Below are positions 24,598 through 46,600 of a DNA stretch of 64,000 bases, one piece after another. The stretch's first letter is position 1; the number at the start of each line of letters is the position of its first letter. Under the pieces are notes generated by a model, which worked only from the letters and a program-made list of their open reading frames with translations, was not told the origin of the DNA and did no database searches. The position numbers were made by a program, and so were the translations under genes. This DNA comes from Clostridia bacterium (lineage in GTDB: Bacteria; Bacillota; Clostridia; TANB77; CAG-508): NCBI GenBank assembly GCA_017510245.1, contig JAFWNQ010000013.1, positions 3,361 through 67,360 of the forward strand, read 5' to 3'.

Positions 24598-25563
24598 ATG
24601 AATAAGTATGTTTGTAAAATAGCAACAAAAGATGAAATAATTGAGAAATTCAATTATGAAATAGAAAAACATCCAAATGATAATAGATGGTCAATATGGA
24701 AAAATGAGGCATTGCAATGGTATAAACAAGGAAAAATAATTGTATATATTGGAATTCTAAATGGAGAAATTATTACCGAAGCTACTGCAATAATAGATAA
24801 GACAGCAGTTCAAAATGCAGGCGAAAAAATGGACGATGATGAATTAGTAAATAGTACTATGGCATATTTAAGTGCTTTTAGAACTAAAGCTGAATATGAA
24901 GGCAAGGGATATTTTTCAAGACTATACAAGTATATGGAGAATGATCTAAAAGGTAAAGGATACAAGCGTCTTTCACTTGGAGTCGAGCCAAAAGAAGTTA
25001 GAAATATGAAAATTTATTTCAATTGGGGCTTTGACAGATTCATAAAAACTGCATATGAAACATATCCACCAAAAAATGATTATGTTGATGAAGAAAGCAT
25101 TTTAGTTAATTATTATTATAAAGATTTAGAAGATGTTGCAAAAATATATAAATTGAAATATAATAAGAGTACAAAAAAAGGTGGAGGAAAGAAAATGAGA
25201 AAAATAGTATTTTATAGATGTAATGAATGTGGTAAAATTGAATGTGTGATTGATGGAGAAAACAAAGAATTGATGTGTTGCGGAAAGCCAATGGAAGAAT
25301 TAAAACCAAATACAGTAGATGCAGCAGTTGAAAAACACGTTCCAGTATACGAAGAAGATGGTGATATGATAAAAGTAAAAGTAGGTGATGTAGAGCATCC
25401 TATGACAGAAGAGCATTATATTATGTGGATAGCTTACTTTGATAATAGCAAAGTATTCTTGAAAAGGTTAAATCCAACAGATAAACCAGAAGCTGAATTT
25501 AAAAAGACAGATTTATTTGAAATATATGCATTTTGCAATTTACATGGACTTTGGAAAAAATAG
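24598..25563 (+). CDS. dfx: In-frame fusion ORF: GNAT-like acetyltransferase N-terminal domain + desulfoferrodoxin (superoxide reductase) C-terminal module
   Basis: The C-terminal 122 aa carry the desulforedoxin site CNECGKIE...CCGKPM and the SOR centre EKHVPV...HPMTEEHYIMWIAYF...C..H. An internal RBS AGGTGGAGGAAAG lies 7 nt before an in-frame ATG at 25195. The N-terminal ~199 aa carry the GNAT motif-A-like RTKAEYEGKGYFSRL. Confidence 0.7.
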   Translation: MNKYVCKIATKDEIIEKFNYEIEKHPNDNRWSIWKNEALQWYKQGKIIVYIGILNGEIITEATAIIDKTAVQNAGEKMDDDELVNSTMAYLSAFRTKAEYEGKGYFSRLYKYMENDLKGKGYKRLSLGVEPKEVRNMKIYFNWGFDRFIKTAYETYPPKNDYVDEESILVNYYYKDLEDVAKIYKLKYNKSTKKGGGKKMRKIVFYRCNECGKIECVIDGENKELMCCGKPMEELKPNTVDAAVEKHVPVYEEDGDMIKVKVGDVEHPMTEEHYIMWIAYFDNSKVFLKRLNPTDKPEAEFKKTDLFEIYAFCNLHGLWKK

Positions 25564-25768: not shown

Positions 25769-26575
25769 ATGGAAAAAAATAATGTAATTGAAGTTGAAAA
25801 TTTGAAGAAAAATTTTATAGTTAAGCAAAAGGAAAAGGGATTTAAAGGAAGTTTAAAGTCAATATTTAAACCAAAACTAAAAGTTGTAAAAGCTGTTAAT
25901 AATATTAGCTTTAATGTTGAAGAGGGAGAGATGTTAGCTTTTATTGGTCCAAATGGTGCAGGAAAATCTACAACAATAAAAATGTTAACAGGAATATTGT
26001 ACCCTGATAGTGGCAGAATTAAAGTACTTAATATTGATCCAACAAAACAGAGAAAAAAGTTAGCATATAAAATAGGAACTGTGTTTGGACAAAAGGAACA
26101 ATTATGGATGCATCTAACTCCATATGATAATTTTAAATTCTTTGGAGCTATATATGACTTATCTAAAGAAGAAACAGAAAAAAGAATTGAAGAGATCAAT
26201 AGTTTGTTTGATCTAAGCAAATTTATTAATACACCAGTAAGAAATCTAAGTTTAGGACAAAGAATATTATGTGAAATCGCAGCATCTCTAATACATAAAC
26301 CTAGAATACTATTTTTAGATGAGCCAACAATTGGTCTAGATCCTGTTGTAAAGGAATCAATTAGAAAACTAATTAAAAAAATGAATAAAGAATACAAAAC
26401 TACTATTTTTTTGACAAGTCATGATATCTCAGATATAGAAAAATTATGTAAGAGAGTGATAATTGTTAATAATGGAAAAATAGTTTTAGACGATCAATTA
26501 ATAAATTTAAAGAAACAAGAAGGCACTTTAGAAGAGATTATTAGTAAAATTTATAAAGGAGAAAAAACAAAATGA
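25769..26575 (+). CDS. ABC transporter ATP-binding protein (ABC-2 exporter type)
   Basis: Walker A GPNGAGKST, signature LSLGQRIL, Walker B LFLDEPTIGLD. Confidence 0.85.
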   Translation: MEKNNVIEVENLKKNFIVKQKEKGFKGSLKSIFKPKLKVVKAVNNISFNVEEGEMLAFIGPNGAGKSTTIKMLTGILYPDSGRIKVLNIDPTKQRKKLAYKIGTVFGQKEQLWMHLTPYDNFKFFGAIYDLSKEETEKRIEEINSLFDLSKFINTPVRNLSLGQRILCEIAASLIHKPRILFLDEPTIGLDPVVKESIRKLIKKMNKEYKTTIFLTSHDISDIEKLCKRVIIVNNGKIVLDDQLINLKKQEGTLEEIISKIYKGEKTK

Positions 26576-28142: not shown

Positions 28143-28170
28143 AAGTGGGATTATTTTTTAATTCCCACTT
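28143..28170 (+). terminator. Rho-independent terminator
   Basis: AGTGGGAtT-attttttA-ATTCCCACT hairpin. Confidence 0.5.
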
Positions 28171-28310
28171 CTATTACTTTATAACAATATTGACCATCTG
28201 GGCGACAAGTTTACTTAGATATATCAATTATTTTCTAATTTAGTAAAAAAATGTTGCTTTTTTTTATTTATTTGATATAATATAAACATCTGAATTAGGG
28301 AGGATAAGAG

Positions 28311-28811
28311 ATGAAAAAGATACTGTTTAATGTACTAGTAATCATCTATGTAGTAATTGCAATATTTACGACAATGTGCTTATTAAATTACAATGAGTAC
28401 AAGGTTTCACAATTTGGAGATAAAACACTAGTTATCATTGATAAGGATGAAGAAGGTATAGATTATAAAAAAGGAGACTTAGTAATTGTTGATAAAAAGG
28501 GGTATGAGTCAGCGAATGAAGGAGATACCTTAATTTTCTATGAAAATGATGGAATAAAAATTACTAAGATATTAAAGAAAAATGACTTTGGGGATGCAGG
28601 AATAACATTTACAATTGATGGAAATTATCAGGTTGTTCATGAAAATGTTATTGGAATAGCTAAAAATGCAAAAGTTATTAGTAAGGTTGGAGGAATATTA
28701 GGCTTACTTCAATCAAAATGGGGCTTTTTATTCTTGATAGTATTCCCTTCACTTTTAGCATTTTTACATCAAGTATATGAACTAATACTTGAATTATCTA
28801 ATAAAGAATAA
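28311..28811 (+). CDS. Degenerate SipW-like (S26) signal peptidase paralog lacking the catalytic Ser and His
   Basis: SipW topology (N- and C-terminal TM) and GDLVIV box are kept. The catalytic SGSMEP is replaced by SQFGDK. The ITHR His motif is replaced by IKITKI. Confidence 0.55.
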   Translation: MKKILFNVLVIIYVVIAIFTTMCLLNYNEYKVSQFGDKTLVIIDKDEEGIDYKKGDLVIVDKKGYESANEGDTLIFYENDGIKITKILKKNDFGDAGITFTIDGNYQVVHENVIGIAKNAKVISKVGGILGLLQSKWGFLFLIVFPSLLAFLHQVYELILELSNKE

Positions 28812-28827: not shown

Positions 28828-29445
28828 ATGAAGAAAACATGGTTTTTAGTAGGAGCACTCATGTTGCTAATTACAACATATGAAATAATAAGTTCATATG
28901 CGAAGTATACATCGGAAGCTACTGGAACAATAGAAAAAAATGCTGGAGCATGGATGATTAAAGTAAATGATAGTAATATTGCTACCGGCAATTTGGAAAC
29001 AACATTTAATATTGATAGTTTAACATATCCATCTAATGATTTAGTGGCTGAGAATAAAATAGCACCATCATCTAGTGGATATTTTGATGTAGAGATAGAT
29101 GCAACTGGTAGTAGTGTAGCTGTTAGATATGATATAACACTAGACACGGCACAAATGAATATTAGCGAAGGAATACATTTTCAAAATGCTTACAAAGTTG
29201 TAAATAATTCTGAAGTTTCAGAAGGAATTATAAGAACTGGCGCAAATACATATTCTGGAATAATATCTTTGAACAGCATACAAAATGGTGAAAAATGTAA
29301 ATTACGTTTTTATATAGGTTGGGATGAAGATGAGTCTGGAGAGTCAGATGAAAACGACTCAGTATTAGGTCATTTAAAAGATATTTCAACATCTCTGCCA
29401 GTTGAAGTTGTTGTTACACAGTATTTAGGAGAAGAAATATCTTAA
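28828..29445 (+). CDS. TasA/camelysin-family secreted protein with SipW-cognate-class signal peptide
   Basis: MKKTWFLVGALMLLITTYEIISSYAKYTSEATG signal. RBS AAGGAATAAGT. Confidence 0.7.
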   Translation: MKKTWFLVGALMLLITTYEIISSYAKYTSEATGTIEKNAGAWMIKVNDSNIATGNLETTFNIDSLTYPSNDLVAENKIAPSSSGYFDVEIDATGSSVAVRYDITLDTAQMNISEGIHFQNAYKVVNNSEVSEGIIRTGANTYSGIISLNSIQNGEKCKLRFYIGWDEDESGESDENDSVLGHLKDISTSLPVEVVVTQYLGEEIS

Positions 29446-29459: not shown

Positions 29460-30050
29460 ATGGATTTAATAAACAAAATAGTAAAAATTTTTTTTAATAT
29501 AATACTATCATTAACTGTATTAATATTTATAATTGTAGTTTATAACTTTTTTCAAATTGAAATTCTAAAGAAAGACTATACTGCTTTTTTTGGATATACT
29601 TCATTTGAAGTAGTAAGTGGAAGCATGTCAGAAACAATAGAAATAGATGATTTGGTAATAGTTAAAATAACAGATGACTTGCAAGAAAATGACATAATCT
29701 CTTTTAAAGATAATGATGAAATAATAACACATAGACTAATTAAAATTGATGAAAATACACTTTATACAAAAGGAGATGCTAATAACTCAGAAGATAAAAC
29801 AATAGATAAATCTCAAGTTATTGGAAAAGTAATAAAAGTATTACCCAGATTTGGAATTTGGGTAAAAGTTTTTTCAGACACAAAAGTTATAATATCGATA
29901 ATTATAACATTATTGCTATTTGGATTTGCAATAGAGAAAGAAGAGAATAAAGATATAACTGATTCAAAAGAAAAAAAATCTTTATATAGGTTTATGAGAA
30001 ATAGGAGAGAAAAGAAGAATGGGAAGAGCGAGGAGAAGGGAGAAAGCTAG
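29460..30050 (+). CDS. sipW: Signal peptidase I, SipW type (archaeal/ER-like S26B)
   Basis: Catalytic VVSGSMSETIEIDDLVIV and IITHRLI motifs. C-terminal TM plus a Lys/Glu/Arg-rich tail. Confidence 0.8.
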   Translation: MDLINKIVKIFFNIILSLTVLIFIIVVYNFFQIEILKKDYTAFFGYTSFEVVSGSMSETIEIDDLVIVKITDDLQENDIISFKDNDEIITHRLIKIDENTLYTKGDANNSEDKTIDKSQVIGKVIKVLPRFGIWVKVFSDTKVIISIIITLLLFGFAIEKEENKDITDSKEKKSLYRFMRNRREKKNGKSEEKGES

Positions 30051-30594
30051 AGCATTATATAAAAAAATTGCTTTCTTTATTATATCTATATTGCTAATCA
30101 TAACTACAATTAGATTTACCCTGTCCAGATACAGATCAAGAGGACATTCAGATGCAAATGTAGATTTGGCTTTTTACTTATTTAAAGAAGAAAGTATATC
30201 TCAAGAACTAAAACTGGAAAGCATTCTGCCTAGGGAGTTGCCCTATGTATATGACTTATATGTAGCAAATCACGATGATACAGATAGAACAGAAACATCA
30301 ATTCAGTATACAATACAAATAATGACAACAACTAATTTACCATTAAATTTTAGTGTCTATAAGGATGATAACACTGAAGAAGACCTTGTAACAGGTATAG
30401 AAACAAGAACAGATACTGATGGAACATATTATAAATTCATAGATGTTCAAGGAGGAAGCTTTGGATTCAGAAACGATGAAGAAGCTACATATAAACTTCA
30501 TGTAACATTTCCTAAAATATATAATCAGTCAGAATATGAAGGCATAGTAGAATATGTTAAAATTACGATAAAATCTAATCAAAAGTTAGAATAA
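30019..30594 (+). CDS. Secreted protein with variant SipW-cognate-like signal (TLSRYRS)
   Basis: Basic N-terminus, TM, then FTLSRYRSRG. Overlaps the sipW 3' end by 32 nt in another frame. Confidence 0.5.
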   Translation: MGRARRREKARALYKKIAFFIISILLIITTIRFTLSRYRSRGHSDANVDLAFYLFKEESISQELKLESILPRELPYVYDLYVANHDDTDRTETSIQYTIQIMTTTNLPLNFSVYKDDNTEEDLVTGIETRTDTDGTYYKFIDVQGGSFGFRNDEEATYKLHVTFPKIYNQSEYEGIVEYVKITIKSNQKLE

Positions 30595-30609: not shown

Positions 30610-31494
30610 GTGGATAAAAATATTTCAAATAAAAAGAAGAAAAGAAAATCAAGAAGAAGACATAAACAACCTAATTTTATATTGATACTAATAGTATTTG
30701 TTATAGCTATATTTCTTATGCCTAAATTTATATCAACAGCGAAGTATATTTATAATGTAGTACATGAACATTATTTATCTTCAAAAGACTTTTTCTTCAC
30801 AAGTGATAAATTGAGTATAAATCACACAGAATATGAAATAACAAATAACTGGTCTGGAGCAGAAACCTATGTAATTACTGTTAACATGAGTAGTAAAGAA
30901 AATGATATGGCATATACAGAATCTGATATTAAGTATCAGATTTCATATACTTGCTCAGATAATATTAGTTGCACTTTAAATAAAAATGAAGGAACTATAG
31001 TAGGAACTGATAATAATGGGGTTAATGAAGACTACTTTACTGCTAGTATAAATCCTGCTGGAGGAACTGCACTAGCTGAAGGTGAAGTTGCATGGATTGA
31101 ATTAACTGCTACATCTACAGAGCCATATACTCAAACGTTGACTGGAAAACTTATACTTGAAGTTGGTTCAGCAGAAATAACCTATGAAATAATTGATTCT
31201 GAAAATCAACCATATTTAACAGTTAATATAACAAATTCACAGAGTGTTGGAACAGATGTAACATTATCTTATAGTCCTAATACACTATTGTTAGATATGA
31301 CAAGTAGATTTAGACTAAATTCTAATAATCACGGAGATGAAACAATAAACGGTTATAGCTATTATAATAGCATAACATCATATGTAGAATCATTGAGCAC
31401 AACTTCAGTTAAGTTTTACAAAAAAGATCCAACACAAAACTATTCATATACTAACGGATCTAGTGGTACACCAGTAATAACATTAACGCATTAG
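30610..31494 (+). CDS. TasA-like secreted protein (signal ...FISTAKYIYNV)
   Basis: Poly-basic N-terminus, TM, and a SipW-cognate-like motif. Thr/Ser-rich beta-rich body. Confidence 0.55.
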   Translation: MDKNISNKKKKRKSRRRHKQPNFILILIVFVIAIFLMPKFISTAKYIYNVVHEHYLSSKDFFFTSDKLSINHTEYEITNNWSGAETYVITVNMSSKENDMAYTESDIKYQISYTCSDNISCTLNKNEGTIVGTDNNGVNEDYFTASINPAGGTALAEGEVAWIELTATSTEPYTQTLTGKLILEVGSAEITYEIIDSENQPYLTVNITNSQSVGTDVTLSYSPNTLLLDMTSRFRLNSNNHGDETINGYSYYNSITSYVESLSTTSVKFYKKDPTQNYSYTNGSSGTPVITLTH

Positions 31495-31506: not shown

Positions 31507-32514
31507 ATGACAACAAATTTAATGGAACAATATTTAAATATTACAAAACTCTTTATTAAGGAGTTTACAAAGCTTTTCCTAGAAGAAGAATATAAAGAAG
31601 ATATTTCGAAAGAATTTATATCAGCATATATAGATTCTAGAATATATAATTATAGTGGAAATAATGAAAAGTTTTTTTATAAAAGAATTTACCAGAACTT
31701 AATAAACATTAAAAATGAACTAATTGGTAAACTTGATAAGAATTTAGAAAAAGCTATAGAAGATAATCTAAGAATTTATCAATTTGTATTCTACATTGAT
31801 GGAGTTAGACCAATTGGTGATTTAAATGAGTTTGTAAAACTAATATGTGAAAAGAGAAAAGAAATAATAGATAAAAATGAAACAAAAGATACAAACTTAT
31901 CATTTAATAGATTGATAAAGAAATATAATGAAGATAAAGAAAAGTTTTTTAAGAATTATGAAACTACAGATTTTTCTCTTGAAATAGAAAAATACATTTT
32001 AGTTGATGATACATATAAAGCAAAGCTTAAATACAATTTTAGAATTCCATATATATATAGTCAAAAAGTAATAGATGAAGTGTACAATAGTGGAACAGTT
32101 AATGAGGACAAATTGATTATAGAATATACTTTACTAACTCTAAACTGTATAAAAGAGATTAATAATGGAAATTTTACTACAAAGTATTTAGTCGAATTTG
32201 CAAATACTCTTTTTGACAAAAGTAACAAAATAAAACAATCGCTTAGAGTTCTTAATAATCAAGCAATACAGGAAAAAATAATTCTAAAAGTTAATTATGC
32301 TGATTATGAAGAAAATAAGGAACTTTTCTATGAGTTAATAAAGGAAGGATTTAAATTTGCAATTATAATTGATAATTCATTTAAAGCAGATATGATAAAT
32401 CTAAAAAAACTAAACATGTTTGACTATTTATTAGTGCCAGAAAAAAGTGAAAACTACTATGACATAAAGTATTATGAGAATAACATTACAAATATTGTAA
32501 TATATGATGTATGA
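31507..32514 (+). CDS. Cytoplasmic hypothetical protein of the cluster
   Basis: 335 aa, no TM, Lys/Glu/Tyr-rich. Confidence 0.45.
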   Translation: MTTNLMEQYLNITKLFIKEFTKLFLEEEYKEDISKEFISAYIDSRIYNYSGNNEKFFYKRIYQNLINIKNELIGKLDKNLEKAIEDNLRIYQFVFYIDGVRPIGDLNEFVKLICEKRKEIIDKNETKDTNLSFNRLIKKYNEDKEKFFKNYETTDFSLEIEKYILVDDTYKAKLKYNFRIPYIYSQKVIDEVYNSGTVNEDKLIIEYTLLTLNCIKEINNGNFTTKYLVEFANTLFDKSNKIKQSLRVLNNQAIQEKIILKVNYADYEENKELFYELIKEGFKFAIIIDNSFKADMINLKKLNMFDYLLVPEKSENYYDIKYYENNITNIVIYDV

Positions 32515-34077: not shown

Positions 34078-35160
34078 ATGAGAGAACTTGAAGTTACGAA
34101 TTTATATGATAGTATTGATGAACAAAGACTGGAAGATTTCAATAGCAAATTGGATTCTAGCATGAGGGTTAAAACTGATTACTTTAAGGATGATAATGAT
34201 TTTGAATGGGTAGATAAATTTGAACAATTATTACCTTATATAGAAAAGATACTTAGAAATCCAAAAAGATTTATTACAACAGAAGAAGAAATTGTAAAAA
34301 TTGAATCAGCAAAGAAAGTTGGAGTTGAAACAGTAAAACATCTTGCAAAGCATACTAATTATATACAAGATATTGATGAAGAATCAGGAGATGTAATACC
34401 ATCAAAACTATTGAATGTATTAAAAGAAGAAACATTTAATACATATGAAAATAGATTTATTTATACATTAATTCAAAGAGTTAGAGACTTTATAAAAAAA
34501 CGTAAAGATAATATAAAAAGTAATCCACGACTTAAGGATAATAAAAAGGTTGAGTATACAAGTTCAACAATGGTTGGAGAAGAAAAAATTAATGTTAATA
34601 TTCAATTAAATACTGACCTTGACACTAAAACTGAGGTAGATAAAAGAATACTAGAAAGAATCAAAAAGATAGAAGACAATGTTAAAGACATGCAATATAC
34701 TGAAGTTTATAAAGAATTAGAAAAAGAAGGAGTGCCACTTGTTACTCCACCAATAAAGAAAACTAATGTAATATTGAAAAATGTTAATTTCCAATATGCT
34801 ATGACATTATGGGATTACGTTAATGAAAATATTAGTAAAAAGGATAATCCAGTAAAAAAGAATAAAGATTATATGGAAAAAGGATCAATAAAAGGTTTGA
34901 TTGATGAGACTTTTTTACTTGAGTATTTAACAGTAAATAATATTAATAAGGATGAAGAATTTATTAAAGATGCAAAGGAAAAAACCTTAAGTAGAATGTT
35001 AGATAAAATTATTGACTTGAATCCTGAATTAACAAAAAAGGAATTACAAGAAAAACTAGGTTTAGAATTTGATAAAGCAATAGAAAGAAGAATTGCTACA
35101 AAGAATGACATAGAAAAAATATTCAGAAAATATTTAAACAGATATCTTGAAAAAGTATAA
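34078..35160 (+). CDS. Partner protein of the McrB-like NTPase (possible McrC-like/DUF2357-like; unverified)
   Basis: Starts 13 nt after the AAA+ gene. 360 aa, charged, no TM. No clear PD-(D/E)xK motif seen. Confidence 0.4.
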   Translation: MRELEVTNLYDSIDEQRLEDFNSKLDSSMRVKTDYFKDDNDFEWVDKFEQLLPYIEKILRNPKRFITTEEEIVKIESAKKVGVETVKHLAKHTNYIQDIDEESGDVIPSKLLNVLKEETFNTYENRFIYTLIQRVRDFIKKRKDNIKSNPRLKDNKKVEYTSSTMVGEEKINVNIQLNTDLDTKTEVDKRILERIKKIEDNVKDMQYTEVYKELEKEGVPLVTPPIKKTNVILKNVNFQYAMTLWDYVNENISKKDNPVKKNKDYMEKGSIKGLIDETFLLEYLTVNNINKDEEFIKDAKEKTLSRMLDKIIDLNPELTKKELQEKLGLEFDKAIERRIATKNDIEKIFRKYLNRYLEKV

Positions 35161-35172: not shown

Positions 35173-35829
35173 ATGATGATAAAAATAATAAAGGGAATTT
35201 GGGCAGTAATTAGAGCAATATTGTCTGTACTATTAGTAATACTATTGGCAATAGTTCTTACGCAAAGATTAACAAATAACAAAAATGCTGTTTTAGGATT
35301 TAGAATTTTTACTGTTGTTACAGAAAGTATGGTTCCACAGTTTGAAGTAGGAGATGCTATTTTTACTAAACAAATTCAACCTTCTGAAATAAAAGTAGGA
35401 GATGATGTTACTTATATAGGTACAGAGGGAAGCTTTAAAGATAAAATAGTAACTCACAAAGTTATTAAAGCAGAGAAGAATGAGGAAGGTAAATACATAT
35501 TTGTAACTAAAGGAATTGCAAATGAAAAGGAAGATCCTGAAATAAATGAAACACAGATTTATGGAAAAGTATTATATAAAATAAGAAGCATTTCGTATAT
35601 TAATAGAGTAATTGGTAATCTATATGGAATGTACTTTGCAATATTTATCCCATTAGGAATAATAATGTTTATAGAGTATGCTGGTTATAAAAAGGACTTA
35701 AAAGATGAGCTTGAAGAAGAAAATGAAGAGGACGAAGAATTAGAAGAAAATAAGATAGATAAGCATAAAGAGAGAAGAATGGAAAGACGAAAAAAAAGGA
35801 GAGAAAAAAGGAGTAATAAAGAAAAGTAA
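35173..35829 (+). CDS. sipW: Signal peptidase I, SipW type (second copy)
   Basis: VVTESMVPQF Ser box, IVTHKVI His box, C-terminal TM and a KRREKRS tail. Confidence 0.75.
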   Translation: MMIKIIKGIWAVIRAILSVLLVILLAIVLTQRLTNNKNAVLGFRIFTVVTESMVPQFEVGDAIFTKQIQPSEIKVGDDVTYIGTEGSFKDKIVTHKVIKAEKNEEGKYIFVTKGIANEKEDPEINETQIYGKVLYKIRSISYINRVIGNLYGMYFAIFIPLGIIMFIEYAGYKKDLKDELEEENEEDEELEENKIDKHKERRMERRKKRREKRSNKEK

Positions 35830-35873: not shown

Positions 35874-36530
35874 ATGAATAAAAAAAGAAAAGAAAAGCTT
35901 TCAAGAAGACAAAGAAGAATAAAAAAAAGAGTTACATTTAGAACTTTATTTTTACTAGCTATAACCCTAATTTTTAATACCTATGCATGGTTCCTATATA
36001 TAACTACTGTTTCTTCTAGCATTACTGCCCATGTTGAAGCGTGGCATGTTGAATTCAAAGTTGATGATGATGTGGTTGAGAAAGAATTACCTATTGTTGT
36101 TGAACACGCATATCCTGGAATGCAAGACGTTGAAAAAACAATAGATATAATAAATGGAGGAGAAAGAAGTGCTGATATTCAGTACATAATAAAACATGTA
36201 AGAATCTTTGATACATTGTATGTGGCTACTGACCAGCTTGAATCTGGCGAATCAGTTCCAGCAGGTGCGGAAACTTCTACTTCCAGCGGACTTATTTCAA
36301 AGATACAGAATGATTATCCTTTTTCTATTACAATATCGACAAGTGACGGCACAATTGCTGCATCAGAGCAGGGAAGCCTTACTGTTACGTTTACGTGGCA
36401 ATATGAATCAGGTGATGATGCTACTGATACTGATTATGGAACAGAGGCGTATACTTATTATCAAGACAATCCTGGAAGTGATGCAATAGAAATATTACTA
36501 AAACTAACAGTAACACAACATGAAGACTAG
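35874..36530 (+). CDS. TasA-like secreted protein (signal ...NTYAWFLY)
   Basis: RRQRRIKKR then TM, then TYAWF. Asp/Thr-rich C-terminus. Confidence 0.6.
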   Translation: MNKKRKEKLSRRQRRIKKRVTFRTLFLLAITLIFNTYAWFLYITTVSSSITAHVEAWHVEFKVDDDVVEKELPIVVEHAYPGMQDVEKTIDIINGGERSADIQYIIKHVRIFDTLYVATDQLESGESVPAGAETSTSSGLISKIQNDYPFSITISTSDGTIAASEQGSLTVTFTWQYESGDDATDTDYGTEAYTYYQDNPGSDAIEILLKLTVTQHED

Positions 36531-36654: not shown

Positions 36655-37266
36655 TTATGCTGTTAACTGCTCAAAAACAATATTTGCTTCTATTACTGCC
36701 TTGCCATTACTAATGGCAATTGCTGTATCTTCAATGTCATTAAGTGTTTCTGTATCGTGGTCATCATTCCAAGTGACATAAACTCTAATTGTTGAAGAAT
36801 TAACTGAACTTGCTGAACTACCAACTATACTGGTTTGATCTGAAGTTAAGTAGGTGATGTTTTCTTGAAGTCCTGGATAAGAGTATCCTGCAACTTTTAC
36901 ATCTGAAATATCATTTACACTAGTGCCAGAAACAGTAATCGTATATTTAAAAGCTAATGAAATATTAGATGAATCAATTACTAAATCAAAATATCCCATA
37001 GCACTTGGAACTATATAGTCTGGATCATAGTAATCATTTTCTGAAAATATTAAGTTTAGAGTTTGACTAAAATCAGAATTCTGAATAATATCCTGATTAT
37101 TTAATAGAATTTTCCAACCGTCAATTGCAAAATTAGCATTTGAATCAATTGACGATAAATATTTTGCATAAGTAGACCTAATTATTAATAATGAAATAAT
37201 TAACCAAACAAATGCAAAAAATAGTATTATTTTTTTCTTCATAAGAGTACTTTTCCTTTCTAACAA
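36655..37266 (-). CDS. TasA/camelysin-like secreted protein (signal ...RSTYAKYLSS), opposite strand
   Basis: MKKKIILFFAFVWLIISLLIIRSTYAKYLSSIDSNANF. Confidence 0.65.
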   Translation of the reverse strand: MLERKSTLMKKKIILFFAFVWLIISLLIIRSTYAKYLSSIDSNANFAIDGWKILLNNQDIIQNSDFSQTLNLIFSENDYYDPDYIVPSAMGYFDLVIDSSNISLAFKYTITVSGTSVNDISDVKVAGYSYPGLQENITYLTSDQTSIVGSSASSVNSSTIRVYVTWNDDHDTETLNDIEDTAIAISNGKAVIEANIVFEQLTA

Positions 37267-37486
37267 TGCTGAGTAGCATACAAAAGTATTAATAATCTAA
37301 CTAATTTATATTATAACATATTTAGACAAAATAAAAAGAAATATTACAGAAATGTTAAAAATATGTAAAAATAATGCAAAGAAAATGTAAAAACTTTGTA
37401 ATTGTATTACTCAATACAATATGCTATACTTTGTATAAATCAATATTGTATATATTGTTTATTCACAAAAAAAGTTGGTGTTACAC

Positions 37487-38263
37487 ATGCAAGAAAATCA
37501 AGAAAACCATAGTGTTGACAATCTAAAGAAAGACAATGTCGAAAAAGGAAAAAAAATATCTGAGAAAAGAGAAACAAGGAAGAAAGCAAAAAAAATATCA
37601 GATATAGGAGAAAGAACAAAAAAACTGAAGAATATCCTTATAATAATGCTACTATTCTTATTAATACTTTACTTTGTTTTAAGAATAGCTTATGAAACAG
37701 GAAGGTTTACAGTAGTTCTTGATTCTTCATCAGATATGAAAGGCGCTTTGGTAATGTATGCAAACAAAAACGAAAAACTAACTAGAAGAACATTACAAGC
37801 AGATGTTTTAGATTTTATGACTAACATTTCAGGGGATTGGATACCAGAAAACATTAATGATGAGGCAGATGGTGGACACAATGGGGAAAACTATATTGCA
37901 TATACATTCTATATTGAAAATATGGCTGACGAAACAATTCATTATTGGTATAGAATTTATATTGATGATATAGTAAGAAATGTTGATAAAGCAATTAGAG
38001 TAGCAGTTTACTTGAATGGTGAAAAAACAGTATATGCAAAAGCAAACAGTAGAACATCCGAACCTGAAAAAGATACAGTAGCATTTAAAGATGAAGAAAA
38101 TGTTATGTTGGTTCAAAGGAGAGATTTTAAATCTAAGGATGTAGACAAATTTACTGTTGTAATATGGGTTGAAGGTGATGATCCTGATTGCATAGATGAC
38201 CTGATCGGTGGAGAAATGAAAATGCACATGACCATAACTGAAGAACATATTAAACAAGAATAA
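37487..38263 (+). CDS. Secreted protein with variant SipW-cognate-like signal and a conserved C-terminal IWVEGDDPDCID motif
   Basis: N-terminal KK-rich region, then TM, then RIAYETGRFT. The C-terminus is homologous to that of 38287..39288. Confidence 0.55.
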   Translation: MQENQENHSVDNLKKDNVEKGKKISEKRETRKKAKKISDIGERTKKLKNILIIMLLFLLILYFVLRIAYETGRFTVVLDSSSDMKGALVMYANKNEKLTRRTLQADVLDFMTNISGDWIPENINDEADGGHNGENYIAYTFYIENMADETIHYWYRIYIDDIVRNVDKAIRVAVYLNGEKTVYAKANSRTSEPEKDTVAFKDEENVMLVQRRDFKSKDVDKFTVVIWVEGDDPDCIDDLIGGEMKMHMTITEEHIKQE

Positions 38264-38286: not shown

Positions 38287-39288
38287 ATGGGAAGAAGAAG
38301 TAGAAAAAGTAAGAGAAGATTAAATTCTATGTTTTTAGCAGTATTGCTATCAGCAGTTATGCTAATAGTAACAACATATGCATGGTTTTCTTCAAACAGA
38401 ACAGTTTCAATTGAAGGAATTACAGCAAAAGTTGCAGCAGCAAATGGCCTACAAATATCGTTGGATGGTGCAAACTGGGGCTCAAGTGTTACAGTAAATA
38501 CAACTACACTTGCAGCAGCAGATGACTATAATGACTATGTATTTCCAAATGAATTACATCCAGTATCAACAACAGGGACAACGCTTGATTCAGGAGATGT
38601 TAGTTTCTTTGCTGGATTAGTTAGCTCAGATGGATCAAAATTAACAAGTGCAGCACAGGCTGGTGCAGCAGATAATTTTATAGTATTCGATGTATATTTA
38701 AAAAATGCATCATCACAAACTTCAGATAATTTACAATTAGATACAAATACAGAAGTTAAATTAGGTGCTACAGAAGGAAAAGAGGGTGTAAGAGACACGG
38801 GTCTTGAGAATAGTGTTAGAACTGGATTCTTATTATATCCAACAACAGCACAATTTACAGCAGCTCAATCAGCTATAGCATCATTAGGTGGAGATAGCCC
38901 ATTAGTAGGAATTTGGGAACCTAACTACAATAAACATATTTTGGAAGTTGCAACTAATGACCCAAGAGTTGAAGAATCAACAACTAGTGATTTTAAAACT
39001 TTAGGATTATTAAATGCTGGTTCAGGAACACTAACTGGAATTGATGGAACTGATGATACAGACTTTATGGCAGAAACAAAGACAATAAGAACTGATGCTA
39101 AATTAACTGCACCTGTAAACCTTACAGCTGTAGATGAGACTGGAACTCAGTTTTCACTACCAGGAAATACAATTTCTAGAATGAGAGTATATATATGGTT
39201 AGAAGGACAAGATCCAGACTGTATAGACACAGCATCAACTGGTAAATATTTAGACTTCTTAATTAATTTAGCGAAGCCAACAGTTTAG
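38287..39288 (+). CDS. TasA-like secreted protein (signal ...TTYAWFSSN) with C-terminal IWLEGQDPDCID motif
   Basis: MGRRSRKSKRRLNSMFLAVLLSAVMLIVTTYAWFSSNRTV. Ala/Thr/Gly-rich beta body. Confidence 0.65.
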   Translation: MGRRSRKSKRRLNSMFLAVLLSAVMLIVTTYAWFSSNRTVSIEGITAKVAAANGLQISLDGANWGSSVTVNTTTLAAADDYNDYVFPNELHPVSTTGTTLDSGDVSFFAGLVSSDGSKLTSAAQAGAADNFIVFDVYLKNASSQTSDNLQLDTNTEVKLGATEGKEGVRDTGLENSVRTGFLLYPTTAQFTAAQSAIASLGGDSPLVGIWEPNYNKHILEVATNDPRVEESTTSDFKTLGLLNAGSGTLTGIDGTDDTDFMAETKTIRTDAKLTAPVNLTAVDETGTQFSLPGNTISRMRVYIWLEGQDPDCIDTASTGKYLDFLINLAKPTV

Positions 39289-39567: not shown

Positions 39568-41187
39568 ATGAAAAAAGAATTAGGAGCATTAGAAAAACTA
39601 AATAATCAAATTGACGTTGATAAAGAAGTTCTATCTGTTCTACCTAAAAATAATAAAAGGAATTTACAAGCATATAAAAACAAGGCTGATGAAATAAAAC
39701 ATGAATATGTAAATCTCTATGATAATGTTATTTTAGAACTAAAGAGAAGGACAATTAAGATTAAATCCATTGAGATAGATCCTAAGATTGAACAATTAGA
39801 AAATCAAATTAAGGAAATGGATAATGTTAAATTACTTGATAATAATATTACTTCTTTTGAAAAAATGGAATTAGAGGAAGTTCTTTATACACTAAAAAGA
39901 TTTTATAAGAATAATCTAGAACTAGTAAATGAAGCAATTGTTGCCTGCTTAGATAAATTTAGAATGGCAGGGATTAATTTAAGACAAGAAGACTTTGACT
40001 ATAGTATATATACAAATGAATATATGAGAGTATTTTTAGATGATATGAGAAAGGGAGACATTAATTCTTCTCGAATTAAAGATACATTTGAACAAATATA
40101 TTGGAAATGCTCAGATATTATAATTCATATAGAACTAAACTTTAGAAGTTTATATTTTAAATATGAAAAACAAATAAACAAATACTTCTCTGATATTAGT
40201 AAAGATAATATAAAGAGAATTGGACTTAATGAAAAAGAGGCAATTGAAAGATATAATGCATTGCAAAGCCAATTATTAGAGTTAAAAAATAGAGACACTT
40301 CATTAATTGTAGAAAGATTTTTAAAAAATGAAAAAAATCCAAAAGATTATGAAGAATCAAGTATAGAAAAGAATTATAAAAAATTAATTGGTAAAGATGT
40401 AAATGAATTGACTCCTGAAGAGCTTGTAGAAATTAATAAAAATATATACAGACTTCAAAATAGCTTATATGAATATAAACATTATTTAGAATTTAAGTAT
40501 ATATATGATGATGCAATAGAGGTATACAAAGATAATGAAAAATATAAAAACCTATATAACCAAAAGTATAAACAAATTAAAAAATTAGAGTCAAAATTAC
40601 GTAAAGCTAATAATAGGTTAAAAAAATATGAAAACCATATTGGAATTTTAAAAAAGATATTTAAAAGAAATACTAATAGGTTGGAAGAAGCAAATATAGA
40701 TATAAACAGCATTATTTTACAGTTAAGAGATGAATATAGAAAACTTGAAGAATACAAAACAAAAAATATCATTTCTACTGTGTTAAATGATGGATCTACT
40801 ATTTATGATGTTCTTATATTAGTATGTCAATTTCATAATTTTTTGGTTGACAGTATTATAAAGCAGAATCCCGATATAACTCAAGAAAACATTGAAGAAA
40901 GTATTAAGAAATATAATAGTTTTGTAAAATATCCTAGAATTACAATTATAAACAATATTAATATTAATGAAGATAAGAATATGGTTTTAATGATTAAGGA
41001 TAAGTACAATTTATGTAATCTTAATATTGAAAAGGGTGATTTAGATGTGGATAATTTGCCAAATCTAATAACTACAGTTAATAATATATGTGACAGTAAT
41101 TATATAAAAAATAGTAGTATTTCTGTTGATGAAATAAAATTTGTTTTGCAGAGTGAAAAGATACTAATTGAAAACAACAAGATATAG
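39568..41187 (+). CDS. Large coiled-coil cytoplasmic protein
   Basis: 539 aa with Lys/Glu-rich heptad-like repeats and no TM. Confidence 0.5.
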   Translation: MKKELGALEKLNNQIDVDKEVLSVLPKNNKRNLQAYKNKADEIKHEYVNLYDNVILELKRRTIKIKSIEIDPKIEQLENQIKEMDNVKLLDNNITSFEKMELEEVLYTLKRFYKNNLELVNEAIVACLDKFRMAGINLRQEDFDYSIYTNEYMRVFLDDMRKGDINSSRIKDTFEQIYWKCSDIIIHIELNFRSLYFKYEKQINKYFSDISKDNIKRIGLNEKEAIERYNALQSQLLELKNRDTSLIVERFLKNEKNPKDYEESSIEKNYKKLIGKDVNELTPEELVEINKNIYRLQNSLYEYKHYLEFKYIYDDAIEVYKDNEKYKNLYNQKYKQIKKLESKLRKANNRLKKYENHIGILKKIFKRNTNRLEEANIDINSIILQLRDEYRKLEEYKTKNIISTVLNDGSTIYDVLILVCQFHNFLVDSIIKQNPDITQENIEESIKKYNSFVKYPRITIINNININEDKNMVLMIKDKYNLCNLNIEKGDLDVDNLPNLITTVNNICDSNYIKNSSISVDEIKFVLQSEKILIENNKI

Positions 41188-41217: not shown

Positions 41218-41805
41218 ATGACAATACAAAAGAATGGAGATATTAAATTATTAAAAGCAATTATAGTTTATCTTGCATATATAATAATTGTACCTTTTAT
41301 CATATATGATGTATATCTAATTGCACACAAAATTATGAATCCAAATTCTTCTCCTGAAATATTTGGAATGAAAACATTTAATATTATTTCAGGGAGTATG
41401 GAACCTAATATAAGTGTTGATGATATAGTAATTACAAAAAAGTGTGATAAGCTGGATATTCAATTGAATGATATTATCACATATAGAGCTGAAGGAGAAA
41501 CTATAACACATAGAGTTATCAATATAGAATTTATTAATAATAAAGTCTACTATACAACAAAGGGTGATTCTAATGAAGTGGCTGATTTAAAAAAAGTAGA
41601 GTATAGTCAAATAGAAGGTAAATATGTTGGAAGAATACCAAAGATAGGAAAGATATTTATTTTCTTTAAGAATAGTATAAACTTTTTTATAACTTTAACA
41701 ATTCTATTCTTATGCTACTTATGGCAGAGGAAAAGTATAAAAAAGAAGATTTTAAGAAAAGAAAAGAGAATTAAATTTGAAAGAAAAATGAGTTACACTA
41801 AATAG
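41218..41805 (+). CDS. sipW: Signal peptidase I, SipW type (third catalytic copy)
   Basis: ISGSMEPNISVDDIVI and ITHRVI motifs. N- and C-terminal TM helices. Confidence 0.8.
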   Translation: MTIQKNGDIKLLKAIIVYLAYIIIVPFIIYDVYLIAHKIMNPNSSPEIFGMKTFNIISGSMEPNISVDDIVITKKCDKLDIQLNDIITYRAEGETITHRVINIEFINNKVYYTTKGDSNEVADLKKVEYSQIEGKYVGRIPKIGKIFIFFKNSINFFITLTILFLCYLWQRKSIKKKILRKEKRIKFERKMSYTK

Positions 41806-41828: not shown

Positions 41829-43454
41829 TTATTTTTTTAATGGTAAATCATATTTAATTTTAAAACATGAGAATTTATCTAATTCATTATCATCTAAACA
41901 ATCTAAATAAATATCTAATTCATCCAAATCCTTACAAGCAGAAATGATAGCAGGATTTAAATCGGATTGAAACATTAATTCGAATCCTAACTCAATGGCT
42001 TCTTTTAAAGAACCTTTTTCTTTCTTTTTAATTAATTGAAAAGCTTCTCTAAATCTAGACTTAATTGGATTTTTGTATGTCTCCATAGGAACGACATACT
42101 CTTTTTCAATAATCTCTTCTAAACTAGAATACTTATTACTTGATTTTAATTTTTCCTTTATATCATCAAGCTTATAAGGAAGAATTACTTTTTTATTAGA
42201 ATCTGAAATAATTAAAGTATCATTATCTGATAAAGTATAGGTACTATCAATAATACTTGTTTCTGCTATATCATCATCTTGCTTAACGACTTTTTTATCT
42301 TCAGAAGATATATCATCATTATTCTGATCTGAATTATTATTTGCATCAGAATTATTATTGTTTTCAGCTGGAGAATTTTCAATAATTGTTTCTGCTTTTG
42401 CTTTTGCATTTGAAGAAGTCTTTTTTTGTTCAACTTTATCAAGTTCTTTAGTGATTTGAACTTCAGGCTCTATAGTTTCTTCAACGATATTATCATTATT
42501 TTCTGATAAAGAAGTAGAAGTGTGTGATAGTATGCTAGAATCAAAGCTTTCATCAGTAAAATTAATAATTCCACTTTCAGCTACTAGATTTACTTCACTA
42601 TTTGATATTTCTATTTCTATAAAATCATCACTTTTTGATACTTTAGAAACTTTGGTAATAGGTGATAATTCTAATTTTTCATTTGTGATAATTTTATAAT
42701 TTGATTTTATTTTTGCAATGTATAAGATATCACCATTGCTTGAATTTGAAATTTGAACACCTGATGTTTTTAATGATAAATTAAAACTTTCATCTTTAAT
42801 ATGTATGCTTGCAACTTCATTTTTAAATGAAATCTTATAATTTTCTTGAACTGTTGAAATTACTAAACTATCAGTTTCCTTTTTAGGAAAGAAACATAAT
42901 AGATCTGAAGCATATACATCAACATTTTTTTTGATAAAATCAAATTCTGATTTTGTTTTTTGACTACTTGAAGAAGAATATGTAATATCAAGGAAAGAAC
43001 AAGGCTTTAAAATATCATTTTTATATTTGTTTAGATTTGCTGAAATCTTTATATCTTCTTTGGAAGCAATGTTTTCAAAGTTAGTAATTGTTTGATAAAG
43101 AAGACTTTGAAGCAATTCAATATCATTATTTGTTTTTAATACTAGAGCATTATAAGTATTAATGTCTTTTGCGCTAAGTTTAAATTGCTTTTCTAATAAG
43201 TCTAAAGCATCATTTAAAGAATCTATACCTTCAACAATTGAATCAATTTGTTCAAGTGAACTTGTCAAATTATTCAAAAACATTGTTTTAATGTATTCAT
43301 TATCTATTTGTAATTCTTTAAATTCAGCAATATAAGAAGATAAAGAATTCTTAATATCTTTTTCATAAATAATATATTCATTTACAAGCTTTTTTTCAGC
43401 ATGTACCAATGCTTTAACATTTGTTTTTTTTTGAATTTTGTAGCATGTTAACAT
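41829..43454 (-). CDS. Coiled-coil / Ser-Asn-Asp-rich hypothetical protein, divergent from the giant protein gene
   Basis: 541 aa, no TM. Bidirectional terminator GAGTTACAC/GTGTAACTC at its 3' end (41786..41815). Confidence 0.45.
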   Translation of the reverse strand: MLTCYKIQKKTNVKALVHAEKKLVNEYIIYEKDIKNSLSSYIAEFKELQIDNEYIKTMFLNNLTSSLEQIDSIVEGIDSLNDALDLLEKQFKLSAKDINTYNALVLKTNNDIELLQSLLYQTITNFENIASKEDIKISANLNKYKNDILKPCSFLDITYSSSSSQKTKSEFDFIKKNVDVYASDLLCFFPKKETDSLVISTVQENYKISFKNEVASIHIKDESFNLSLKTSGVQISNSSNGDILYIAKIKSNYKIITNEKLELSPITKVSKVSKSDDFIEIEISNSEVNLVAESGIINFTDESFDSSILSHTSTSLSENNDNIVEETIEPEVQITKELDKVEQKKTSSNAKAKAETIIENSPAENNNNSDANNNSDQNNDDISSEDKKVVKQDDDIAETSIIDSTYTLSDNDTLIISDSNKKVILPYKLDDIKEKLKSSNKYSSLEEIIEKEYVVPMETYKNPIKSRFREAFQLIKKKEKGSLKEAIELGFELMFQSDLNPAIISACKDLDELDIYLDCLDDNELDKFSCFKIKYDLPLKK

Positions 43455-43610: not shown

Positions 43611-46600
43611 ATGATTTATAGAAAATCTTTATATAATAAAAAATTAAATAAAAGAAGAATGATAACAGTTATAACATTTGGAATAGTTTTTTTAATATCT
43701 ACTATAGCATACTATTTTGTTAGCCTATCATCAGCACAGAATGTATTAAAAGCTATGGTATATGTTATAGATGAAGAAGCAGAAGTTGAAATAACCAACT
43801 ATGAGTTGAAGGTTCCTGAGGAATCTGGAGAATACATTGCTAATTTTGAAATGTACCAAAATGGATTTAAGATAAAAAAATATACTGTTACTACAGAAAA
43901 AGAATTCAATGATATTAAAAGTAAATACGAAGGAGGAGATGTAGTAACAAATGAGAATGAAACAGATGAGACAAGTAAAAATGAAGATACTAACATAGAA
44001 AATAATTCTACTGATGAAATACAAAAAGAGAGTGAAGAAACAAATGATGAAGAAAAGAAGATAGAAATAACAAGCGGAGAAAAATATGAATTAACAACAA
44101 GAGAGATAGAACAAAAAAAGATTTATCTTATAGCACAATATGACTATAAAGAACAAAAAGGAGAAAAACTATACAATAAAGTCTTATCAAATACAGCAAA
44201 TAATAATAGTATTAGTATTACTGGCTATATGCCAAAAGACTCAACGATAAAAGTTAACGAAGTTGAAAAAACAGGTGTTGAGGACATAATTAAAGGTAAT
44301 TTCCAAGATGTAAATAAAAATGTAAATTTGGAATCTGCTTATGATATAAAAATTGTTTCAAAAGGAAATGAATATGAACCAGAAGATTTTGGTGAAAGCG
44401 TAAAAGTTTCAATTACTGGGATTGATGGAAAAACCATTAATGTTTGGCATGTAAAAGATGACAACACAGTTGAAATGATGGAATCATATAACAAAAATGA
44501 TAGTGTATCTTTTAAAAGTGATAGCTTCTCAATTTATGGAGTTGAAGTAGTAGAAGAAGAGGAAAAGGTAGAAGAAACTGACGAATCATTTCAAATCAAT
44601 AATAGTATAAAAGCAGCGCCTAGAAGAGCTCCAGCAAGAAATCTGCCTGATAGTATATTAGAAATTGACGATTATACATCAGACTACTATTATTATTTAG
44701 GACAAAATTACACATCTGACATTTCAGGAGAAAACCAAGAAATCTATTCAGAAAGTGATATGGCTAGAGTTACAGTTAATTATTACGGCTTTGCAGAAGG
44801 AGAAACCGATGCAGAACGTAAAGGAAGAATATCATTTGATGAAACACAAGACATAGTTAAGAATATTAGATGCTTACCGATTGTTAATGGTAGTGTTTCA
44901 ATAGAGTTAATGGATAATCCGTTTATGGATAAGCCAACAGGATATGGATTTGGAGGTTGGACTTCGTCAGCAGGGCAAATCAGTAAGGATTCCCACACCA
45001 ATGTTCAAACATTGACAGTAAGTACATCTGGAGATATAGTAGTTAATGTTTATGCGAATTGGCAAGAAGCCACAGTCGTTTATGTAAATGGAGAAGATGG
45101 AAATGATAATCTAAATGATGGATTAACAGAAGATAAACCATTTGGATCATGGGAGGCTGCATTTAAATATATTTCATCTCATAACAAAAGTGATAGAGAA
45201 AAAAATATCATAGTAGTAACTGGAGATTTAGATACGAGTATAAATTATACAAGACCAATAACTCAGAGAATAGCTAAACCAGCAGATGTAACGTTTACTT
45301 CTTCAACAACAGTTATTACTGGCACTGAAGTGGTTTTAGCAACTAATACTGGCAACAATGGAAATGCAATAACTGCATCTGGGTCAGGTGTTGTAAATAC
45401 GCAATTAAGCACAAATGAATTACCACCTGATGAAATAAAGTGGGTAATAACAGTTTCTGGAAATGGAAATAATGCTAGATATACTATATATAATCCTGCA
45501 ACTAATATGTATTTAGCTTGCAGTAGTAGTGGTGTTTTATCTATGAGTTCAACAGCAACACAGTTTAGATATAACAATAGAAGATTTTATTATACTGGAA
45601 CTAGATACTCATATTATTTGAGGTATACAAATGGAAGTTGGACTACATCAACTAGTTCATATAATGGGCAACAGTTTTATTTTTTAACATATACAGCTGT
45701 TGTAGATGAAAATGCAGAAGAAATAATTACTACAACAAGAGGGAGTCTAGCTGCTAATACATATTATTCAACAAGTCAAAATATACCTGTAACTGTAACT
45801 AGCTTATATAATCATACTGATTATAGGAGTGATGCTACAATTGATCTTACAACCTCAAATTATGATGATTTTGACATTCGTGCTGACTTTCAAATGAACC
45901 ATGTTAAAATAAATGCTAGTGGGTATACTACAAATAATGATGGAACAACTTTTTCTACATCATATCCTTGGCTTACCGGATATGCACATAATGTTAGAAT
46001 AGGAAGAGGAATCCAATGTGCAAATACACAAACTGCAGGATGCACTTTTGCAAATGTAATTGGAGGTGCAACTTCAGTAACTAATAACTATAATAATGCA
46101 TACAAACTAGTAGTGGAATCAGGAAAATACTCTTCTATTCAAGGATTCAATAGAAATGGAGCAAACAACTCATATTATGGAACAGTATTCCTTACCTTAG
46201 GAAATGATATTGATAGAAAAGATGCAAGTAATGACGACCTATCTGTATATAACATAACAACAATTAATTCAGGTGGTGGAACAAATGGAAAATCTAATAT
46301 TAGAGAAAAGGCCTGGCTAATAAATGTTAAAAGTGGAAAGTTTGGTACAGATTTTTTTGATACAAATGGAGCAAATAATGTTGATAGTGCTTATGCAGGA
46401 ATATATATGGGCGGATATGGAGCCTCTTCTTCAAATACAGTAAGAGATATTAGTGATAGATATATGATTGTAGAGGGAGGATTAATTGCCAATATAATTG
46501 GCGGACTTAAAACTACATCTAATTCTGGAGTTCTAACAAAATTTTATATGAAAGGTGGGGAAGCCTATAACATTGTTGGTGGAGCTGGTGTTTCAGCTAC

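Follow-up and report, generated by a model that had tools for sequence, protein, structure and literature searches.

A conserved signal peptidase derivative, predicted to be inactive, in a SipW- and McrB-like gene locus of gut and rumen Clostridia

Why does a locus that encodes three active signal peptidases of the SipW type also carry a relative of these enzymes in which, as aligned here, every catalytic residue has been replaced? The question is raised by a stretch of 64,000 nucleotides, referred to below as the window, from a Clostridia bacterium (GTDB lineage Bacteria; Bacillota; Clostridia; TANB77; CAG-508; GenBank assembly GCA_017510245.1, contig JAFWNQ010000013.1, forward-strand positions 3,361 to 67,360). 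The gene concerned, which we call pseudo-SipW, is an open reading frame (ORF) that opens with an ATG codon preceded by a GGGAGG ribosome-binding site (Table 1). An initial annotation, made from the sequence alone, had described its product as a catalytically dead SipW paralog heading the locus. Here we consider its descent, its conservation and the part it may play beside the other proteins of the locus.

Descent, catalytic residues and conservation of pseudo-SipW

Pseudo-SipW is a derivative of the S26B (SipW/SEC11-type) signal peptidases. Searched alone, it matches TIGR02228, the model for archaeal and endoplasmic reticulum (ER)-type signal peptidase I, with an E-value of 9.8e-4 over almost its full length. 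Comparison by hhalign of a 27-sequence pseudo-SipW profile with a 23-sequence profile of the adjacent SipW gives a probability of 92.8% (E 3.9e-7), and a broader profile of 52 sequences matches the SipW family with a probability of 98.0% (E 1.8e-13, 116 columns). Taken singly, 29 of these 52 family members match TIGR02228 (best E 2.8e-10) and 27 match NF046067, the Bacillus SipW model (best E 4.7e-14). When the AlphaFold2 (AF2) model of the protein, with a predicted local distance difference test score (pLDDT) of 80.5, is compared with known structures by Foldseek, it retrieves human SEC11A and SEC11C, Streptococcus pyogenes SipA, LexA, UmuD and the C-terminal domain of lambda cI with probabilities of 0.9-1.0, reaching 1.0 for SEC11A/C and for SipA. 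Since the profile and structure evidence agree, we regard the S26B ancestry as settled. The family profile set against PDB sequences found SEC11A/C at E ~0.4 only, and that alignment was used for register and not as proof.

The architecture of the signal peptidase has been retained, as the initial annotation had proposed from the two membrane anchors and the GDLVIV box (residues 55-60). Hydropathy marks hydrophobic segments at residues 1-28 and 137-160, in the same pattern as in the three neighbouring SipWs, and the AF2 model has helices at residues 2-25 and 136-163. Pseudo-SipW is thus a two-pass membrane protein, with its N-terminus inside the cell, an extracellular β-domain and a C-terminal helix.

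The catalytic positions were located from three alignments, namely two hhalign runs and a HMMER alignment to SEC11A/C; residues were counted per column over 273 aligned family members, and box patterns over 269 pseudo-SipW members and 120 members of the adjacent active SipW1 family. Glu47 lies opposite the SipW1 nucleophile, Ser55, and the corresponding Ser of SEC11, in a column that holds Glu in 69 members, Asp in 68, Asn in 31, Ser in 23 and Thr in 12. Thr85 lies opposite His91 of SipW1, where the family has Ala (143), Gly (66), Ser (15) or Thr (6), and never His. Asn105 lies opposite the Asp of box D (Asn in 150, Asp in 41). Box D (GDxNxxxD) is six residues shorter in pseudo-SipW and Asn105 falls opposite either D106 or D112, depending on the hhalign run; despite this ambiguity in the exact register, no box D Asp is conserved in the family. 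The His-box pattern [ST]H[RK], present in 120/120 members of the active SipW1 family, occurs in 0/269 members of the pseudo-SipW family. On the evidence of these alignments, pseudo-SipW is without the Ser-His-Asp catalytic residues. All three neighbouring SipWs, in contrast, keep Ser55, His91 and Asp112, positions that do not vary in the alignment of active SipWs (A2), as expected from their initial description as active enzymes.

The profile alignment with SipW and SEC11 therefore confirms the loss of Ser, His and Asp that had first been proposed by eye, in an ORF that is S26-related and has no other conserved catalytic pair. The replacement of ITHR by IKITKI was also read correctly, His91 standing opposite Thr85 in both hhalign runs and in the HMMER alignment. 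The nucleophile box, on the other hand, had been misplaced. The stretch SQFGDK (residues 33-38), taken at first to be its remnant, matches instead the conserved FFGYT motif found ahead of the first strand of active SipWs, and in all three alignments it is K45-D46-E47-E48-G49-I50 that lies opposite SGSM(S/E), making KDEEGI (45-50) the true relic of the Ser box. Divergent family members show this relic in place, with DDSLEPDY, DETLEPDY, DDKLEPEY and DSDLEPNY to compare with the SGSMEPxF of active enzymes.

The relatives of pseudo-SipW form a large family. A word-indexed search gave 317 matches, all of them unnamed or "hypothetical protein" entries from Clostridia metagenome-assembled genomes, and an exhaustive profile search gave 943 representatives at 50% clustering (E<1e-3). 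Among the family members examined there is no Pfam domain, and no name beyond "hypothetical protein". With each GTDB species represented by one genome, relatives turned up in at least 131 species, all of them uncultured gut or rumen Clostridia such as Candidatus Scatovivens and Clostridium sp. CAG:780. Across the 20 loci whose gene sets are complete, pseudo-SipW has a median of 46% identity with its window counterpart, SipW1 and SipW2 have 50%, and the putative structural subunits 36-43%; the most conserved genes of the locus are those for the McrB-like and DUF2357 proteins, with medians of 70% and 50%. Pseudo-SipW is therefore conserved about as well as the active SipWs, implying that it is a maintained pseudoenzyme and not a decaying copy, and that it is under purifying selection.

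What is conserved is not, however, what is conserved in the enzymes. Measured in bits, mean conservation is 2.67 in the active SipW1 family and 2.10 in the pseudo-SipW family, and the two profiles are inverted. The active family peaks at the Ser, His, D and E boxes, with 3.27, 3.23, 3.55 and 3.61 bits respectively, whereas the corresponding values in the pseudo-SipW family are 1.40 for the Ser-box relic, which is its least conserved segment, 1.68 for the His-box relic, 1.53 for the box D relic and 2.41 for box E. The pseudo-SipW family peaks instead at box C (2.66 bits, the top of its profile, against 3.15 in the active family) and at the juxtamembrane motif SKWGFLF..P with the C-terminal helix (2.64 bits, against 2.89). 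Of the 31 invariant columns in the pseudo-SipW alignment (A1), 11 fall within residues 136-152.

A possible role with an EAL-like and McrB-like module

In a synteny sample of 80 retrieved loci the gene order is near-invariant: pseudo-SipW, p205, SipW1, p191, p294, p335, a McrB-like AAA+ protein, a DUF2357 protein, SipW2, p218, p203 (on the opposite strand), p262 and p333. Pseudo-SipW is the first gene of this large, conserved and pilus-like block in nearly all of the ~80 loci. In many of them (L018-L028, L043, L046, L054, L059, L079 and L082) one or two SipW3-like genes lie ~2 kb 5' of pseudo-SipW; SipW3 of the window is 13 kb downstream. The statement that pseudo-SipW heads the locus is therefore true of the conserved core block, but not necessarily of the whole system everywhere, since SipW3-like genes are found upstream in many species.

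Three proteins of the block form a module. For p335, the AF2 model is of high quality (pLDDT 89, predicted template modelling score 0.88), and the top 50 Foldseek matches to it are all EAL domains, the best being the degenerate EAL of FimX, a c-di-GMP (cyclic di-GMP) receptor domain (E 2.2e-4). The usual EAL motif is absent, with VEF in its stead, and Pfam EAL gives a weak match in one of 26 p335 orthologues, which does not amount to membership at the sequence level; p335 matches no Pfam or NCBIfam family and its profile finds nothing among PDB sequences, so that the EAL-like fold is seen by structure search only. It may be a c-di-GMP sensor of the locus. The AAA+ protein is related to McrB, matching Escherichia coli McrB (6ut6) at E 1.1e-6 over Walker A, Walker B and the signature motif, and the McrB model NF008457 at E 6e-7. 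Its signature, INNDDS, aligns without gaps to MNTADR of E. coli McrB and allows two readings, NxxD or NxD with a further D behind it. After its hydrophobic segment (residues 49-84) comes a charged stretch that looks helical; no FtsB/DivIC profile was matched. The DUF2357 protein is its McrC-like partner.

The tie between pseudo-SipW and this module is seen most clearly where the rest of the locus has been reshuffled. In one distant locus (L004, 5855-7900) a pseudo-SipW, P0362 (681 residues), carries a p335 homologue (BLASTP E 2e-11) fused to its cytoplasmic end; the fusion lies directly 5' of the McrB-like gene, and the locus has a second, free-standing pseudo-SipW. In another (L085, 10775-12835) the protein to which the p335-like domain has been joined is an active SipW1-like one with intact TGSM and THR boxes, the whole having 686 residues; here too the McrB-like gene follows directly, and a free pseudo-SipW stands immediately ahead of the fusion. 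In L086 and L087 the order of the secreted subunits varies, and pseudo-SipW, p335 and the McrB-like gene are kept. All four of these distant loci thus have rearranged subunits and retain pseudo-SipW, the p335-like domain and the McrB-like gene. Other long members of the pseudo-SipW family carry C-terminal extensions that are charged, low-complexity cytoplasmic tails, to which the EAL-like fusion is the sole exception. Together, the fusions and distant loci argue that SipW-fold proteins, both dead and live, join the EAL-like protein and the GTPase in a single membrane assembly, and the distant loci argue that pseudo-SipW stays with this module more constantly than it stays beside p205.

What, then, does pseudo-SipW do? 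The initial annotation had suggested a chaperone, scaffold or regulator of the three active SipWs; our analyses point to a wider complex that also takes in the EAL-like protein and the McrB-like GTPase. We think that, on balance, it is probably a non-catalytic membrane subunit of a machine that processes and assembles the secreted subunits of the locus. It would be located in the membrane alongside the active SipWs, where its retained peptidase-like domain would either hold the post-signal-anchor region of a subunit uncut or dock an active SipW, and its conserved C-terminal helix would tie it both to the EAL-like protein of the cytoplasm and to the McrB-like GTPase anchored in the membrane. 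It would in this way be a functional analogue of S. pyogenes SipA. A bolder form of the proposal, offered tentatively and unlikely to hold as a whole, would make pseudo-SipW the transmembrane coupling subunit of an uncharacterised fibre-assembly machine of Gram-positive gut anaerobes, in which a membrane-anchored, McrBC-derived GTPase motor and a degenerate, possibly c-di-GMP-sensing, EAL protein act from the cytoplasm by way of one dead and several active SipW-fold proteins, and thereby gate the cleavage and polymerisation, outside the cell, of subunits with SipW-type signal peptides. If true, this would be an assembly route driven by nucleoside triphosphates and controlled by a second messenger, unrelated to sortase, chaperone-usher and type IV pilus systems.

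Pseudo-SipW could instead serve p205 only, as a holdase or chaperone that binds its signal-anchor/cleavage region and presents it for polymerisation, or keeps it anchored as the base of a fibre, with no role in a larger complex. The p205 gene starts 16 nt past the pseudo-SipW stop codon and is the next gene in nearly all of the ~80 loci, and SipA provides a precedent for an inactive peptidase acting on pilus components. The neighbour differs in the distant loci, however, being p294-like in L087, the SipW1-EAL fusion in L085 and, upstream, p203-like in L004, whereas the p335-like and McrB-like genes co-occur with pseudo-SipW in all of them; moreover, it is the C-terminal membrane helix that is most conserved, and not the extracellular domain. 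We consider this explanation distinctly unlikely. Even less probable is that pseudo-SipW acts as a decoy or negative regulator, competing for the shared TYAxF-type signal peptides and so delaying or gating cleavage by the SipWs, possibly under EAL-like control. Its fold, topology and locus are those of the active enzymes, and the L004 fusion to an EAL-like, FimX-like domain hints at regulation, but the catalytic boxes that line the cleft, which substrate mimicry would require, are the least conserved parts of the protein, and the fusion of an active SipW to an EAL-like domain is better explained by a shared complex than by antagonism.

Two further explanations concern the protein itself. As a cryptic protease it would use relocated residues, such as Ser/Thr33 and Lys83, or Ser135-Lys136 at the membrane surface. 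In general, catalytic residues are known to have migrated in some pseudoenzymes (PMC10211241), and Ser135 is nearly invariant, with Lys or Arg at position 136 in ~86% of members. Position 33, however, is Ser, Thr or Ala, Lys83 is found in 157/273 members (57%), and no His is conserved anywhere in the domain; Ser135/Lys136 aligns with an S-D-x-K stretch of the active SipW1 family, which makes it a shared feature of the membrane interface. Both dyads, S33/K83 and S135/K136, were rejected on grounds of conservation and alignment, leaving proteolysis of this kind very improbable. That pseudo-SipW is a functionless SipW duplicate in decay would account for the loss of all catalytic residues and for little else, given a full-length gene without frameshifts in at least 131 species, a conserved position, conservation equal to that of active SipWs and new, strongly conserved motifs such as SKWGFLF..P. 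The conservation data effectively refute this reading, to which we give next to no credence.

The proposal that pseudo-SipW is a non-catalytic subunit of an assembly machine must itself be set against several observations. Homology to S26B enzymes is visible with profiles only, since pairwise BLASTP of pseudo-SipW against SipW1 and SipW2 was not significant and a Pfam search with the single sequence found no match, to S24 or S26. The score of the protein against TIGR02228, 19 bits, is far below the cutoff of 51.85, and the Foldseek E-values (~5e-3) and TM-scores (0.41-0.48) for its model are modest. Ser occupies the nucleophile position in 23/273 members and Asp position 105 in 41/273, yet His is retained in 0/273. 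Each of the two fusions is a single case in metagenomic contigs. A TasA-like or pilin-like fold of the neighbours was not confirmed by any sequence search, and the binding partners and the fibre product are putative. Finally, only ~6 cytoplasmic residues follow the second helix of the window protein, so that any link to cytoplasmic partners must run through the membrane helices.

Borders and neighbours of the locus

The features of pseudo-SipW and of the conserved block are collected in Table 1. On its 5' side the locus appears to end just before pseudo-SipW. The three ORFs upstream of it read as ABC-transporter genes, with a Walker A motif, GPNGAGKST, in the ORF at 25769..26575; in a relative with 49% identity a glycogen phosphorylase gene stands upstream instead and the downstream genes are unchanged, from which we place the border at this point. 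A scan for promoters and terminators around the pseudo-SipW start was uninformative, with 14 promoter-like sites against 16.6 expected. By eye, an extended -10-like sequence, TGATATAAT, can be seen ~30 nt 5' of the start codon, and the intergenic region 28143-28310 has an imperfect hairpin, AGTGGGATT...AATTCCCACT, directly past the ABC-transporter gene; the automated scan called neither. Further upstream, the ORF at 24598-25563 (+) encodes 321 residues, with a GNAT acetyltransferase domain at residues 22-140 and a complete desulfoferrodoxin (superoxide reductase) at residues 205-320; the two are either fused, which would be unusual, or encoded by neighbouring genes in one frame that no stop codon separates.

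Table 1. Positions in the window of pseudo-SipW, its motifs and the other genes of the locus
Feature	Coordinates	Strand	Basis
Pseudo-SipW gene, 166 aa	28311..28811	+	ORF; hhalign to SipW family; AF2; Foldseek
N-terminal transmembrane anchor, ~aa 4-27	28320..28391	+	hydropathy and model helix
Nucleophile-box relic DKDEEGIDY, aa 44-52 (Glu47 at 28449-28451)	28440..28466	+	hhalign, S55 opposite E47; HMMER against SEC11
Box C GDLVIV, aa 55-60, structural motif kept	28473..28490	+	G55, D56, L57 invariant or near-invariant in A1
His-box relic GIKITKILK, aa 81-89 (Thr85 at 28563-28565)	28551..28577	+	hhalign, H91 opposite T85
Box D relic DGNYQVVHEN, aa 103-112 (Asn105 opposite Asp)	28617..28646	+	hhalign
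Box E VIG, aa 113-115, kept	28647..28655	+	I114, G115 invariant in A1; aligns with SipW VIG
Juxtamembrane motif SKWGFLF..P and C-terminal transmembrane helix, aa 134-160	28710..28790	+	invariant columns of A1; profile bits
p205, secreted or anchored subunit, TYAxF-type N-terminus	28828..29445	+	conserved motif; synteny
SipW1, active S26B signal peptidase (Ser55, His91, Asp112)	29460..30050	+	TIGR02228 66.6 bits, above cutoff
p191, N-terminally anchored or secreted	30019..30594	+	hydrophobic segment 10-37; syntenic
p294, N-terminally anchored or secreted	30610..31494	+	hydrophobic segment 18-47; syntenic
p335, cytoplasmic; helical N-domain and EAL-like C-domain	31507..32514	+	AF2 and Foldseek
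Membrane-anchored McrB-like AAA+ GTPase, 511 aa	32530..34065	+	hydrophobic segment 49-84; McrB matches
McrC-like partner, 360 aa; DUF2357 N-domain, nuclease domain not detected	34078..35160	+	PF09823, E 5.3e-18
SipW2, active S26B signal peptidase	35173..35829	+	TIGR02228 82.8 bits; invariant S, H, D of A2
p218, NTYAWF N-terminal motif	35874..36530	+	ORF, hydropathy, motif
p203, p205 paralog, STYAKY motif	36655..37266	-	sequence comparison, motif
p262, N-terminally anchored	37475..38263	+	hydropathy, synteny
p333, TTYAWFSS motif, candidate major subunit	38287..39288	+	hydropathy, motif
SipW3, active S26B signal peptidase	41218..41805	+	TIGR02228 84.2 bits; NF046067 88.3 bits

The putative substrates of the SipWs are recognised by their N-termini. 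In p205, p203, p218 and p333 a basic n-region leads into a hydrophobic segment, after which comes the conserved motif TYA[KW][FY], and related motifs are found in p191, p294, p262 and a protein of 2559 residues; we take these N-termini to resemble the signal peptides of TasA, TapA and camelysin, which are cognate to SipW. Searches of Pfam, NCBIfam and PDB profiles with p205, p191, p294, p218, p203, p262, p333 and p539 placed none of them in a family.

The 2559-residue protein (43611-51290, +) has no Pfam match and is rich in G/N/T repeats that read as β-helix-like. Its N-terminus, with a basic region, a hydrophobic segment and the sequence STIAYYF, is similar to those of the small locus proteins. 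Possibly the SipWs of the locus process it too, as a giant adhesin or a component of a tip. Two proteins of ~540 residues flank SipW3, at 39568-41187 (+) and 41829-43454 (-); both are rich in K, E and N, without family matches, and are probably coiled-coil proteins. In L086 a homologue of the first of these lies directly 5' of pseudo-SipW.

Comparison with known systems

How does pseudo-SipW compare with proteins that are already known? In its fold, N-terminal anchor and β-domain it is like Bacillus subtilis SipW and the archaeal and eukaryotic SEC11 proteins (MEROPS S26B, "ER-type"), with which it also shares box C (GDL) and box E (VIG). The C-terminal helix is likewise present in SipW, and pseudo-SipW, too, sits beside proteins with SipW-cognate-like signal peptides. 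It differs from SipW and SEC11 in having Glu47, Thr85 and Asn105, a shorter box D, a score below the family cutoff and a former active site that is the least constrained part of the molecule. Our literature searches for an inactive SipW or S26B paralog found no report of one.

A second comparison is with SipA (LepA) of S. pyogenes (PDB 4n31), an inactive signal peptidase homologue that is essential for pilus polymerisation and that has the signal-peptidase fold, with Ser replaced by Asp, Lys replaced by Gly and an intact peptide-binding cleft (PMC4049620). The likeness is that of a protein with the signal-peptidase fold and without catalytic residues, encoded within a surface-fibre cluster, which in the present case is a putative one; here the changes are of Ser to Glu and of His to Thr. 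SipA derives from the S26A, P-type (Ser-Lys) enzymes and is associated with sortase-assembled pili, whereas pseudo-SipW derives from the S26B (Ser-His-Asp) enzymes and has two membrane helices. The pseudo-SipW family best matches the S26B models TIGR02228 and NF046067, so that an S26A ancestry does not apply to it. In the locus ORFs examined no sortase was seen; three active SipWs and the McrBC-like module are present instead. Beside the one known case of an inactive signal-peptidase homologue as an assembly factor, that of SipA among S26A enzymes and sortase pili, pseudo-SipW shows that catalysis was lost a second time, independently, among signal peptidases of the ER/archaeal type (S26B, SipW).

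The locus as a whole can be related to a class that has already been named. Bell et al. 2024 name the CoCoPALM class and defer its analysis; they characterise it by a McrB-like GTPase with an FtsB-like transmembrane/coiled-coil N-terminus, a McrC homologue, signal peptidase family proteins and an NxD signature. The locus in the window fits this description in its McrB-like GTPase, whose N-terminus has a membrane helix, in its McrC homologue (DUF2357) and in its signal peptidase family proteins, namely three active SipWs and one pseudo-SipW. That same account draws no distinction between dead and active peptidases and has no EAL-like component or fusions, and those supplements of the paper that are in text form make no mention of signal peptidase. 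Our literature search found the term CoCoPALM in no later paper.

The EAL-like protein has its own parallels. FimX, the best structural match of p335, is a regulator of type IV pili, although p335 lacks sequence-level membership of the EAL family. In LapD, another degenerate EAL receptor, a cytoplasmic EAL domain is coupled to the control of a protease outside the membrane.

Given SipA and the remark on CoCoPALM, a dead peptidase alone will be of limited surprise to specialists. The pseudo-SipW family is, however, a large and unannotated one, and is a fixed component of a widespread locus of gut and rumen Clostridia whose CoCoPALM class has been named and is not known to have been analysed, and it offers an entry to an unexplored assembly system. 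Three features together serve to annotate its members: an S26B fold that bears the xLEP relic, the replacement of the His by Ala, Gly or Thr, and the SKWGFLF..P helix. The dead peptidase, its EAL-like partner and the fusions of that partner with dead and live SipWs provide testable handles on how a repurposed McrBC motor could be wired to the assembly of fibres outside the cell.

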